Part shown: positions 10,069 through 11,628 of the stretch, in pieces | How positions within the stretch are numbered: the stretch's first letter is position 1 | How the letters are laid out: the number at the start of each line of letters is the position of its first letter | Assembly: GCA_902790255.1 (NCBI GenBank) | Contig: CADARG010000001.1 | Span: forward strand, 1 to 44,986 | Source: an uncultured Pseudomonadota bacterium | GTDB lineage: Bacteria; Pseudomonadota; Alphaproteobacteria; UBA3830 | Direction of reading: 5' to 3' | Length of the DNA stretch: 44,986 nucleotides | Position numbers and translations under genes: made by a program | The notes under the pieces: model-generated | Told to the model about the DNA's origin: nothing | Database searches by the model: none | What the model saw: only the letters and a program-made list of their open reading frames with translations

Positions 10069-11067
10069 ATGCTATGTTCAGACTCGTTTGTTGATTGCAA
10101 AGAAAGGTTGAGAAATATTAGGAAATTAATATCGCTGTTATTTGTTTTTGCATGTAATTTGAACGCAATGTGTTGGCAATGGACGAATGCAAAAGATCAA
10201 GAGGTTTCTGTTTCATTTGTTCCGATAGAGTCCTTGACCGATAATAAAGTAGATTTGGTAATAAAATGCCGCACTGCGTTCGTGAAATCTCTACCTCAAA
10301 AATATCAAAAATTGTTCAAATTTGATGGAAAAACTTATGTATATTCGACATCAGCGGATCATCGGGGAAGAGATCAATCTTCAGCAAGAGCGGTGAGTTC
10401 AGAGGAGGATTCACAAGAAGAGGAAGTTGTTCTTTCAAAGCTCGTTTGTAAAGGAAATCCAAGAAAAATCTCGGAAAAAGAGTTGACTGAAATTATCAAA
10501 AACAAGAGAGTAATTTTTTACACTGGCGCCGGAATTTCAGCGAGTTCTGTTCCTACCATGAATCAATTGATGAATGATCTTAAAATGGTGAAAAAATTCG
10601 AAGAATTAAAGGAATATATAGTAGATCTTATCGCTAACTCAGAAAATTATGTGAAGATCTTACAAAATTTCTTTGATAAGTGTGAGAATGCGCTTCCGAG
10701 TGATGCTCATAATATTTTGGCACACTTTATTCAGAAACGAGGACAGTTGTTAATTACCGAAAATTTAGATCAGTTGCATCAAAAAACAGGATTAACTCCG
10801 ATTGTCCTCGCGAGTAATGACAACTATTCTCGAGGAAAATTTAGTGAGAAGATAAAGGACGAGGTTTTGAAATCTGATGCGGTAATAACACTAGGACTAA
10901 ATTCCGATGAAAGTGGATTTTTAAAATACTACAAGAAATTGAATCCTGAGGGAAAAATCATCTCCATAAATCTGCAAAATACAGATTATTTATCTGACGA
11001 CGACTTGATTTTGATCGGAGATATTCAACAATTGTTTCGGAAATTAAAGAGTTATCTCCTTAAATAA
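10069..11067 (+). CDS. Exported sirtuin (SIR2)-fold protein with degenerate catalytic motifs; function unknown
   Basis: N-terminus KERLRNIRKLISLLFVFACNLNA looks like a Sec signal peptide. The C-terminal half has sirtuin motifs FYTGAGISASS and LITENLDQLHQKTG. The segment where sirtuins carry the catalytic His (..LHG..) reads IVLASN, and there are no CxxC pairs for a Zn ribbon. Confidence 0.6.
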   Translation: MLCSDSFVDCKERLRNIRKLISLLFVFACNLNAMCWQWTNAKDQEVSVSFVPIESLTDNKVDLVIKCRTAFVKSLPQKYQKLFKFDGKTYVYSTSADHRGRDQSSARAVSSEEDSQEEEVVLSKLVCKGNPRKISEKELTEIIKNKRVIFYTGAGISASSVPTMNQLMNDLKMVKKFEELKEYIVDLIANSENYVKILQNFFDKCENALPSDAHNILAHFIQKRGQLLITENLDQLHQKTGLTPIVLASNDNYSRGKFSEKIKDEVLKSDAVITLGLNSDESGFLKYYKKLNPEGKIISINLQNTDYLSDDDLILIGDIQQLFRKLKSYLLK

Positions 11068-11100
11068 AATATGAAATTTTGAATGGTTTTTGTATATGTT

Positions 11101-11628
11101 TTAATTTTGAATATTTTGATACAGTAATCTGATCTTTTCTTTGAAATTGTTCAGTTTTTTATCATATTTTTCATCAGAGATTGGCATGCGTTTTATTTCT
11201 TTCCATGCATTGAGAGCATTAGAATATGAATTCTTCAAATCAGAAGGAATATTTTTATGATTGAATAATTTATCGGTTTCTTCGTTATCAAATATCTTGG
11301 ATCCTTTATTTAGAATAGTGTTAAACCTGGTTCCAGGATTTTGCAATGCAGTATTGACGTCTTTCAAATTTTTGATTACAGTTTGATTCTCAAAATATGG
11401 TTTTTGGCTTTTATTGAAGTTTTTTTCTATACTTATATTTAACAGCATATTTTTTATTTCAGTAAGACATTTAATTAATTCGTTGATTTTTTCCAGCAAC
11501 TTCAGTTTATTTAAATTTGTTCTTATTGATTTGAGCTCGGTAATTTGAGATTTCGGGTTGGTCTTAGCGTCAGATTCGAAATTTAGCAATATCAGACAGA
11601 CAGCCAATCCACAGGTTATTTTTTTCAC
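11101..11628 (-). CDS. Small secreted helical protein, Lys/Asn-rich, unknown function
   Basis: Signal-peptide-like N-terminus MKKITCGLAVCLILLNFESDA. The rest is predicted helical and low-complexity (K/N/E/L). Convergent with the SIR2-like gene and divergent from tssK. No recognisable motif. Confidence 0.5.
   Translation of the reverse strand: MKKITCGLAVCLILLNFESDAKTNPKSQITELKSIRTNLNKLKLLEKINELIKCLTEIKNMLLNISIEKNFNKSQKPYFENQTVIKNLKDVNTALQNPGTRFNTILNKGSKIFDNEETDKLFNHKNIPSDLKNSYSNALNAWKEIKRMPISDEKYDKKLNNFKEKIRLLYQNIQN

Follow-up and report, generated by a model that had tools for sequence, protein, structure and literature searches.

A predicted exported sirtuin-fold protein with an altered active site, encoded beside tssK in an uncultured alphaproteobacterium

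The window analysed here is a 44,986 bp stretch of DNA from an uncultured Pseudomonadota bacterium (Alphaproteobacteria; UBA3830). Between fabD and a block of type VI secretion system (T6SS) genes it encoded a sirtuin-fold protein and, on the opposite strand, a small secreted protein. The features of this region are listed below; residue numbers throughout refer to the 332 amino acid open reading frame (ORF) that starts at the ATG at 10069.

10061–10084, forward strand: terminator-like hairpin with an 8-bp stem and a T-rich tail, just 3′ of the fabD stop codon (10043)
10069–11067, forward strand: sirtuin-fold gene, longest ORF, 332 amino acids from ATG 10069
10108–11067, forward strand: sirtuin-fold coding sequence from the preferred TTG start, 319 amino acids, matching the GTG start of the L009 orthologue
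10108–10167, forward strand: predicted signal peptide, residues 14–33, (M)RNIRK-LISLLFVFA-CNLNA, with predicted cleavage after Ala33
10168–10365, forward strand: N-terminal alpha/beta domain, residues 34–99, three long strands and two short helices
10366–10443, forward strand: acidic, Ser-rich disordered linker, residues 100–125 (…SSEEDSQEEE…)
10444–11064, forward strand: minimal sirtuin domain, residues 126–332, a Rossmann fold with the helical portion of the small domain
10525–10539, forward strand: GAGIS NAD-phosphate loop, residues 153–157, near-invariant in 202 relatives
10756–10770, forward strand: T-E-N-L-D, residues 230–234, counterpart of the sirtuin TQN(I/V)D
10810–10815, forward strand: position of the catalytic His, here Ala248-Ser249
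10894–10923, forward strand: G-L-N-S-D-E-S-G-F-L, residues 276–285, a family signature that stands in for the sirtuin GTSxxVYPA
11101–11628, reverse strand: Lys-rich secreted protein of 175 amino acids with the leader MKKITCGLAVCLILLNFESDA, a neighbour and not a partner
11820–19175, forward strand: tssK, tssL (DotU), tssM (IcmF-like, 1346 amino acids) and tssA, assigned with Pfam and given as context only

The sirtuin-fold ORF had 68 word-index homologues and a dN/dS of 0.18–0.22, compared to 0.06–0.09 for fabD and 0.03–0.05 for rlmH. The homologues and the substitution pattern together identify it as a real gene, and the dN/dS values indicate purifying selection. The ATG at 10069 is unlikely to be used because it is located in the loop of the terminator-like hairpin that follows fabD. 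In the L009 orthologue a stop codon was found two codons 5′ of the GTG start, which aligned with TTG 10108, and the start of L007 was one to four codons later than this TTG; the alignments therefore make TTG 10108 appear the likelier start of the two. A 215-nt contig identical to 10763–10977 was present in the run likeliest to be RNA among four candidates. As the candidate runs had been chosen for containing the sirtuin-fold gene and their contigs were of low depth, this match is suggestive only of transcription.

A Sec-type signal peptide was predicted by a hydrophobicity and cleavage-site heuristic combined with conservation. The leader had a basic n-region, a hydrophobic core with a mean Kyte-Doolittle value of 2.9 and Ala at position −1; its AlphaFold2 (AF2) pLDDT was below 50. 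The same layout was kept in frame in Holosporales, Chlamydiae and Dependentiae, where the c-region ended in Ala or Ser, and the core reached a mean of at least 2.0 in 121 of the 167 family members with an N-terminal extension. Approximately a quarter of the family members, including those of Wolbachia, CPR and some others, were without a leader, and the predicted signal peptide is best described as a trait of most members, not all. The initial annotation had proposed this leader and had also raised Met34 as a true start that would remove it. The leader claim stood as a prediction, its n-h-c layout appearing to be conserved as coding sequence across phyla, and for the same reason a start at Met34 was ruled out: an in-frame leader lies upstream of it in several phyla and, of the 110 members that have this Met, 53 have it at an internal position, which marks it as structural and not as the remnant of a start codon. 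The FVFAC segment also fits a lipobox, but Cys29 was not conserved and is Ser in the 74%-identical orthologues, so that a lipoprotein is unlikely as a family trait. A signal peptidase I is also encoded in the window (24159–25025).

The unassigned N-terminal portion described in the initial annotation was resolved into this leader, the alpha/beta domain, the acidic linker and a lead-in of approximately 10 residues between the linker and the sirtuin domain in the AF2 model. The alpha/beta domain, of approximately 60 residues and placed at 34–95 by this model, opened with a conserved M-x-W and had a pLDDT of 80–97; a separate AF2 model of it had a pLDDT of 75.8. The best PDB match of the separate model in a Foldseek search had an E value of only 0.41, and for this reason the domain is considered to be without a known structural relative. 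The linker had a pLDDT below 50 for residues 100–121, a variable length in the alignment and a dN/dS of 0.37–1.2.

The protein matched the Pfam SIR2 model (PF02146) with 25.8 bits, against a cut-off of 24, over positions 1–99 of the 180 profile positions only. A PF02146 match was found in all 60 aligned family members, and a TPP_enzyme_M/DHS-like signal extended across the C-terminal half in 34 of the 60. The best PDB match by phmmer was the Sir2Tm H116A mutant (2h59, E 1.7e-4), and a profile built from the 60 family sequences matched Sir2-Af1 (1ici) at E 6.7e-13. The AF2 model of the protein (pLDDT 82.5, pTM 0.79) retrieved sirtuins as all of its top 50 Foldseek matches, the best being 3jwp (E 2.5e-10). 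On these sequence matches and this model, the protein is assigned to the sirtuin superfamily (SIR2 fold, DHS-like NAD/FAD-binding domain), which upholds the fold named in the initial annotation.

The NAD-pocket motifs on which that annotation had relied, GAGISASS at residues 153–160 and ITENLDQLHQKTG at residues 229–241, were both present. Alignment with 202 relatives showed that the pocket was near-invariant across the family at GAGIS, H214, N232, D234, G-L-S/N, N/D301 and GD-Q, and that the pocket residues, including the family-specific E231 and D280, were 95–100% conserved. In the GAGIS loop, G153 and S157 were found in every relative, A154 in 199 and G155 in 200. The nicotinamide pocket kept its Asn and Asp (N232 200/202, D234 202/202), whereas the Gln of the canonical TQN was replaced in the same column by Glu231 (192/202). 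In the 276–285 signature, D280 was invariant (202/202), and G276, G283 and L285 were conserved in 200, 186 and 192 relatives. Y151, E231, D280, Y307 and D312 (98%) are near-invariant acidic and aromatic residues that the family has gained.

The catalytic His of sirtuins aligned with A248 in a gapped alignment and with S249 in an ungapped one, such that ‘LASN’ takes the place of ‘LHGN’; the non-His reading of this position in the initial annotation was correct. None of columns 245–251 contained a conserved His among the 202 relatives (approximately 10% His per column at most), and no other residue was conserved at the His columns either. The initial annotation had also noted that there were no Cys pairs for a zinc ribbon. 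Compared to CobB, the whole ribbon of approximately 45 residues was deleted together with the FGE strand, leaving a median of 27 residues across the 202 relatives where CobB has about 75. The window protein has no Cys after C205, and two CxxC motifs were found in none of the 202. Alignment with E. coli CobB and two canonical sirtuins further showed that the FR(G) after GAGIS was deleted (GIPxFRG to VPT---M). The FR residues help to hold NAD in a productive conformation in canonical sirtuins, so their deletion could have altered or abolished NAD binding. The best NCBIfam score was 46.8 bits against a cut-off of 243, and the cut-offs of the CobB models are all above 220. Judged by these alignments, what acyl-lysine binding and deacylation need (His, zinc ribbon, FGE strand and FR(G)) is gone across the family. 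The ‘degenerate active site’ of the initial annotation was thus right as regards the loss of the His and the zinc module, but the alignments point to a strongly conserved, family-wide redesign and not to decay in one gene.

The family comprised 299 representatives at E ≤ 1e-30, or about 300 clusters at 50% identity. It occurred almost exclusively in host-dependent bacteria, which spanned several phyla; the carriers were Holosporales, Rickettsiales including Wolbachia, Chlamydiae, Dependentiae, symbiotic Verrucomicrobia and CPR. Several copies per genome were seen, some copies lay near recombinases and nearest relatives were in other phyla; family pseudogenes were present in Wolbachia. Our literature search found no description of an exported, zinc-less or His-less bacterial sirtuin family like this one, and the literature on SIR2 in Wolbachia, Chlamydiae and Holosporales was not found to describe the family.

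The 175 amino acid protein encoded at 11101–11628 had a hydrophobic leader and its gene was divergent from tssK (11820), as the initial annotation had stated. It had only 8 homologue clusters, all restricted to the present clade, and no Pfam, NCBIfam or PADLOC match. It was also considered as a TssJ and rejected, having no lipobox, no family match and, from the sequence reading of the initial annotation, an apparently helical character. Sister genomes, with fabD 91% and tssK 88% identical, encoded fabD, the 175 amino acid protein and tssK-tssL-tssM, and had an 87-bp hairpin-bearing spacer at the position of the sirtuin-fold gene, which was absent. A 74%-identical orthologue had a gene for a different secreted protein downstream, and relatives at 45–51% identity were located after accBC or between ParE toxin genes. 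Among 57 genomic loci of relatives, none had tssK, tssL, tssM or tssA within 10 kb. All-against-all clustering of the 833 neighbouring ORFs at these loci gave no recurrent neighbour in more than 7 loci; those that were shared were generic ABC ATPases, serine recombinases, accC and, at four Holosporales loci, an AP_endonuc_2 gene. The window contained no VgrG, Hcp, PAAR or adaptor gene, nor was there a macrodomain among its Pfam-annotated neighbours. From these comparisons, the position beside tssK appears to be a lineage-specific insertion into a variable gap, with no functional link. Both the pairing with the secreted protein and the T6SS association that the initial annotation had suggested were not supported by the comparison: the sister genomes keep the 175 amino acid gene and tssK-L-M without the sirtuin-fold gene, and the 74%-identical orthologue has another neighbour.

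Three groups of sirtuins are currently recognised: deacylases of the canonical kind, the SirTM ADP-ribosyltransferases and the NADases of the SIR2_2 type (PMC12700824). The family is closest in sequence and fold to the canonical class U/III sirtuins of PF02146 (Sir2-Af1, Sir2Tm, CobB). Both have the Rossmann core, the helical sub-domain, GAGIS, P-x-x-A-H, T-x-N-x-D-x-L-H, G-x-S, the (I/V)-N strand and the C-terminal GD motif. Unlike the canonical type, the family is without the catalytic His, zinc ribbon, FGE strand and FR(G), has Glu for the Gln of TQN, carries an additional N-terminal domain behind a predicted signal peptide, and scores far under the CobB cut-offs. The best functional precedent is the macrodomain-linked class M, SirTM, whose members do not have the catalytic His, keep the Asn and are not deacylases but robust ADP-ribosyltransferases that modify a protein (PMC4518038). 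The family has likewise lost the His and kept the essential Asn; however, SirTM retains the zinc domain and replaces the His by a conserved Gln/Arg pair, and the family has neither. SirTM is also cytoplasmic and encoded in an operon with a macrodomain protein and GcvH-L, which was not seen for the family. The SIR2_2 type (ThsA, DSR, SIR2-HerA, SIR2-APAZ and vertebrate FAM118) shares with the family a sirtuin fold without the zinc module; such proteins have been discussed as NADases and process NAD rather than deacylating (PMC12700824). The family differs from them in having no PF13289 signal (0/60), a sequence nearer canonical SIR2 and no partner or sensor domains, in having lost the His and in being predicted to be exported, not cytoplasmic. 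The defence representatives (Thoeris ThsA, DSR1/2, SIR2-HerA and SPARSA) need a SIR2_2 domain and a partner (SLOG, TIR, HerA, pAgo/APAZ or the large DSR body), whereas this locus has fabD, a small secreted protein and tssK. This agrees with the initial annotation, which had found no fit with Thoeris, DSR, SIR2-HerA or pAgo systems. A secreted bacterial sirtuin that acts on the host is described for Campylobacter jejuni, SliP, which is presented as a deacetylase with sirtuin activities (PMC10421069); the present family has no deacylase machinery and has a predicted Sec-type leader.

The reading that we prefer, at about an even chance of being correct, is that of a stand-alone, Sec-exported protein from an undescribed branch of the sirtuins, which would bind NAD, not deacylate, and probably cleave NAD or transfer ADP-ribose at the host interface. 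Signal peptidase I would cut the leader after Ala33, and the mature protein of approximately 34 kDa would reach the periplasm or beyond; a Sec leader alone carries a protein just to the periplasm. There it may bind NAD+, which in an intracellular symbiont would be host-derived. As deacylation would not be possible, the cleavage of nicotinamide is the most likely outcome, with either water (NADase) or a target molecule (ADP-ribosyltransferase) as the acceptor. The chemistry would proceed at Asn232 and Asp234, which the pocket has retained, with Glu231, Asp280 or both at the nicotinamide ribose, and specificity for a target or location may come from the N-terminal domain and the acidic linker. 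Counting against an NADase, all experimentally studied NADase sirtuins known to us still use the His. The pair of hypotheses in the initial annotation, a host-directed NAD-binding or NAD-consuming protein or else a pseudoenzyme, is still the right one.

The pseudoenzyme is an unlikely alternative that nonetheless carries weight. In it NAD+, ADP-ribose or a related nucleotide would be bound without turnover, and the protein would serve in the periplasm as a module for binding or sensing, or would act on host proteins as a decoy or scaffold. The family-wide loss of the His that acts as general base and of the FR residues in the loop fits such a role, the pocket residues could stay conserved for binding alone and the TPP_enzyme_M/DHS-like signal (34/60) recalls non-catalytic nucleotide-binding domains of the same fold. 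The acidic residues gained beside the ribose position (E231 95%, D280 100%, D312 98%) nevertheless look more like chemistry, and no transporter or sensor partner recurs nearby. We consider a nutritional role improbable, in which the protein would split host NAD+ in the periplasm into nicotinamide and ADP-ribose for salvage by the symbiont instead of manipulating the host. An intact NAD pocket, a Sec leader without a dedicated secretion signal and the limitation of the family to host-dependent, genome-reduced lineages would suit this. Against it, the 57 loci had no recurrent link to a transporter or salvage gene, the leaderless CPR and Wolbachia copies are ill-suited to a periplasmic role, and neither evolution faster than housekeeping genes nor presence and absence between sister genomes, multiple copies, recombinase neighbours and Wolbachia pseudogenes would be expected of housekeeping salvage.

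Delivery by the adjacent tssK-L-M-A, as a T6SS effector or as an effector–partner pair with the 175 amino acid protein, is close to refuted and to be regarded as very improbable. Such delivery would explain a gene that lies 750 bp from tssK and converges with a secreted-protein gene divergent from it. The sister genomes, however, retain the 175 amino acid gene and tssKLM without the sirtuin-fold gene, the orthologue has a different downstream gene, and more distant relatives lack T6SS genes in the surrounding 10 kb and occur in lineages not known to possess a T6SS. The window, moreover, offered none of the VgrG, Hcp, PAAR and adaptor genes, and a Sec leader argues against delivery by this route, as the known substrates of a T6SS are loaded on the cytoplasmic side. 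We give similarly little credence to conventional NAD-dependent protein deacylation by way of a His placed elsewhere in the loop. His250 is indeed present in some orthologues (LASHD in P0002, P0005 and P0007) and a His at 245–247 in some distant members, together a minority; yet no column exceeded approximately 10% His in the 202 members, the window protein has no His there, no member has the zinc ribbon and FGE strand that make up the acyl-lysine site, and the CobB models gave 47 bits against cut-offs above 220. A stand-alone anti-phage SIR2 module acting by NAD depletion has next to no probability. Although the domain is zinc-less, as in defence sirtuins, and gave weak PADLOC SIR2 matches (E 1e-4 over 50 residues, and 1.5e-3), the SIR2_2 Pfam model matched 0 of 60 members, sensor and partner domains are absent, the protein has lost the His on which known defence SIR2s depend, the carriers are obligate intracellular bacteria and the signal peptide would place the protein outside the cytoplasm, where NAD depletion acts.

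Extending the preferred reading of an exported, NAD-processing protein to the whole family, we tentatively propose, as a possibility short of even, a fourth class of sirtuin fold that is secreted, without zinc module and catalytic His and with Glu for the Gln of TQN. It would have been passed by gene transfer between obligately host-associated bacteria from five phyla or more, and would cleave NAD+ or ADP-ribosylate at the symbiont–host interface by a mechanism unlike that of all studied sirtuins. If this is true, it would be a further branch of the sirtuins, one that derives from the canonical type but has lost the zinc module as well as the catalytic His, and no other branch would have a signal peptide as a characteristic of the family. 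Such a branch would also show the extent to which a sirtuin active site can be rebuilt. Tractable hosts exist for some carriers, environmental chlamydiae and Vermiphilus in amoebae being examples, and the hypothesis can therefore be tested directly. NAD is a currency contested between host immunity and symbionts, and the confinement of the family to bacteria living inside other cells or on them makes it a candidate for a shared tool directed at host NAD.

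The initial annotation had recognised a sirtuin in the product of this ORF, and the Pfam, profile and structural searches agreed that the protein has a sirtuin fold. The product matched Pfam SIR2 at 25.8 bits (cut-off 24), with only the first half of the model covered. In a phmmer search of the PDB, Sir2Tm and Sir2-Af1 were matched with E values of about 1e-4, and a Sir2Tm mutant, H116A, ranked top because its 'LAGN' fits the 'LASN' of the query. A profile of 60 members of the family, the relatives without the catalytic His and zinc module, matched Sir2-Af1 with an E value of 6.7e-13. 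The AlphaFold2 model built on the 60-member alignment was confident (pLDDT 82.5, pTM 0.79), and its 50 best Foldseek matches in the PDB were all sirtuins. PF02146 was matched by 60/60 aligned members and SIR2_2, a defence sirtuin family, by 0/60. The product scored far under the cut-offs of the NCBIfam CobB models and its PADLOC matches were weak. The model showed the following layout (residues counted from ATG 10069):

Residues 1–31, disordered N-terminus with a basic, hydrophobic leader
Residues 34–95, small alpha/beta domain
Residues 100–121, drawn as 100–125 (10366–10443), acidic, Ser-rich disordered linker (SSEEDSQEEE)
Residues 126–332, sirtuin domain

Modelled separately, residues 34–95 had no PDB relative by Foldseek (best E value 0.41). 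The linker differed in length among orthologues, with a dN/dS of up to about 1; its S-x-x-E/D pattern, which resembles eukaryotic CK2 phosphorylation sites, is only a hint that it is exposed to a host. Many distant members carried an approximate G-F-L-L-K-S-P-P-x-I-S-x-x-E-L motif in the stretch that separates leader and N-terminal domain (for example at loci L021, L022, L024 and L033 and in proteins P0048, P0049, P0082 and P0085), which was absent from the subfamily of the window protein.

Alignment of the family with E. coli CobB (from NC_000913) and two canonical sirtuins found by genome scan revealed that the FRG following GAGIS-x-GIP was absent family-wide, that TQN was replaced by TEN and that GTSxxVYPA had become G-L-(S/N)-x-D-(D/E)-x-G-F-L in the whole family. 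A block of approximately 45 residues, comprising the zinc ribbon and FGE strand, was also absent, and no conserved residue occupied the position of the catalytic His. An exhaustive profile search returned 299 representatives at E ≤ 1e-30 and 558 at E ≤ 1e-10, mostly of 300–350 amino acids, and residues were counted over the 202 members aligned to the profile. G153, S157, H214, D234 and D280 were each present in all 202 members, followed by N232 (200), F201 (199), D312 (197), Y151 and Y307 (196 each), Q320 (193) and E231 (192). His reached at most about 10% at any of columns 245–251, none of the 202 members had two CxxC motifs in one protein, and the would-be zinc ribbon segment had a median of 27 residues. 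The NAD pocket of the sirtuin Rossmann domain is intact and highly conserved, the elements for acyl-lysine binding and deacylation are all lost, and new invariant acidic and aromatic residues are present. Comparison of the window gene with its 90%- and 74%-identical orthologues gave a dN/dS of 0.18–0.22 (0.14–0.20 for the sirtuin domain alone), against 0.06–0.09 for the adjacent fabD and 0.03–0.05 for rlmH; the gene is therefore under purifying selection, yet its rate of evolution is three to four times that of the neighbouring housekeeping genes. The loss of the His and the zinc module had led to the site being called degenerate. The loss itself holds across the 202 members; because it is family-wide and accompanied by conserved residues and purifying selection, the site is a conserved redesign and not the product of decay.

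The ORF was confirmed to be present in the following arrangement:

9117–10043, fabD, upstream neighbour of the sirtuin-fold ORF
10061–10084, terminator-like hairpin directly 3′ of fabD, with ATG 10069 in its loop
10069–11067, + strand, sirtuin-fold ORF
11101–11628, − strand, 175-amino-acid ORF, convergent with the sirtuin-fold ORF and divergent from tssK
11820–19175, tssK-tssL-tssM-tssA, divergent from the 175-amino-acid ORF

The Pfam scan placed the housekeeping genes accBC, ssb, gyrA, an ABC ATPase and rlmH upstream of this locus, and a BON protein, comM, rplT, dksA, lepB, rnc, era and recO downstream of the T6SS genes; signal peptidase I is also encoded within the window. The T6SS set (11820–22864) consisted only of tssK, tssL, tssM and tssA, followed by the BON-domain protein, comM and a 468-amino-acid SPFH protein; tssB/C, hcp, vgrG and clpV were not found among the Pfam-scanned ORFs (the scan left out 41684–44539). 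The only Pfam match of TssM (1346 amino acids) was the IcmF-related N-terminal domain. A complete-looking Tad/Flp pilus cluster (33011–41619, + strand) encoded a prepilin peptidase, RcpC/CpaB, the secretin CpaC, CpaD, a CpaE-like ATPase with a receiver domain, CpaF, TadB and TadC.

The orthologue at locus L009 has a stop two codons upstream of its GTG, which aligns to TTG 10108, and the orthologue at L007 has an ATG at nearly the same place; together with the position of ATG 10069 in the hairpin loop, this makes TTG 10108 the preferred start codon. With either start the leader is identical: (M)RNIRK, LISLLFVFA and CNLNA, followed by MCWQW. Relatives in Holosporales, Chlamydiae, Dependentiae and unclassified MAGs kept this layout, with a hydrophobic core that is preceded by basic residues and followed by a small residue at −1 and the M-x-W with which the first strand opens. 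Among 167 members whose N-terminal domain is preceded by 15 residues or more, 121 had a core with a mean Kyte-Doolittle value of at least 2.0. The Sec-type leader noted initially is also predicted in several phyla, and Wolbachia and CPR copies were leaderless. Some gene callers began relatives' genes at the internal Met. Of the 110 members with this Met, 53 carry it at an internal position, so that it is a structural residue; with the leader layout kept upstream across phyla, it was ruled out as the true start. FVFAC (10141–10155, residues 25–29) fits a lipobox pattern. As its Cys is replaced by Ser in P0005 and P0006, orthologues of 71–74% identity, any lipidation would be confined to particular lineages.

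The initial annotation had paired the protein with the 175-amino-acid protein and linked both to the T6SS; neither association held. In sister genomes, whose fabD and tssK are 91% and 88% identical to those of the window, the order was fabD, then the 175-amino-acid gene converging on it, then tssK-tssL-tssM, and the sirtuin-fold gene was replaced by a mere 87-bp spacer with a different hairpin. At L007 a 74%-identical orthologue was followed by a leader-bearing, highly charged 255-amino-acid protein (6298–7065, + strand) with no similarity to the 175-amino-acid protein, which had only eight homologue clusters, or to tssK. Relatives with 45–51% identity were located after accB-accC, in the vicinity of serine recombinases with an AP-endonuclease-fold gene alongside, or were flanked by ParE toxin genes. 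tblastn with TssK, TssL, TssM and TssA of the window as queries gave no match within 10 kb at any of 57 genome loci, and clustering of all neighbouring ORFs across loci found no recurrent partner gene. The T6SS framing was therefore dropped; a T6SS substrate is not expected to carry a Sec leader. The gene is most readily understood as a lineage-specific insertion, and the fabD-tssK gap seems to be a variable islet that collects secreted proteins. Two different genomes of Holosporales type (L001/L002 and L004) carry, within 10 kb of the homologue, genes for a serine recombinase, DUF2924, a Toprim/DUF927 primase and DUF7698 that look like an integrative element.

The window DNA originated from bovine gut or rumen metagenomes, and its closest genome relatives were Holosporales-type Alphaproteobacteria. 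By genome scan the family was restricted to host-dependent bacteria: Holosporales (including Finniella), Rickettsiales and Wolbachia, Parachlamydiaceae, Simkaniaceae and Rhabdochlamydiaceae, Dependentiae (including Vermiphilus and Babeliales), Verrucomicrobia of protist-rich habitats and several CPR lineages. Some Rickettsiales and Wolbachia copies were frameshifted; Wolbachia copies at L060, L063 and L065 were broken by frameshifts or stop codons, and those at L019 and L035 were intact and leaderless. Nearest neighbours within the family were often from other phyla. For example, copies in a Holosporales MAG (L017) and a Puniceicoccales MAG (L048), which are assigned to different phyla, were 63% identical over 230 residues; either the gene was passed from one symbiont to another or one of the MAGs was misbinned. 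Several genomes had more than one copy and a few members were tandem duplications; P0118, P0131, P0155 and P0207 had either a second sirtuin-fold stretch or a long extension at the N-terminus, and the L024 member (P0053, 564 amino acids) had a C-terminal CYTH domain (PF01928).

No description of the family was found in the searchable literature, where the only secreted bacterial sirtuin found was C. jejuni SliP, described as a deacetylase (PMC10421069). By sequence the family branches from the canonical class U/III sirtuins, yet it lacks their defining features; SirTM and the SIR2_2 NADases are its best functional analogues, and their defining features are likewise missing. The protein would be exported by Sec, cleaved after Ala33 and bind NAD+. 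As it could not deacylate, it would either cleave nicotinamide, as an NADase or ADP-ribosyltransferase, or only bind NAD+. Catalysis is favoured over mere binding, because the newly acquired carboxylates E231 and D280 hardly vary and, by analogy, because the His-less SirTM, which keeps the Asn, shows robust ADP-ribosyltransferase activity but is no deacylase (PMC4518038) and SIR2_2-type sirtuins without the zinc module process NAD (PMC12700824). It may act on NAD or proteins of the host or on the envelope of the symbiont itself, or it may serve nutrient salvage.
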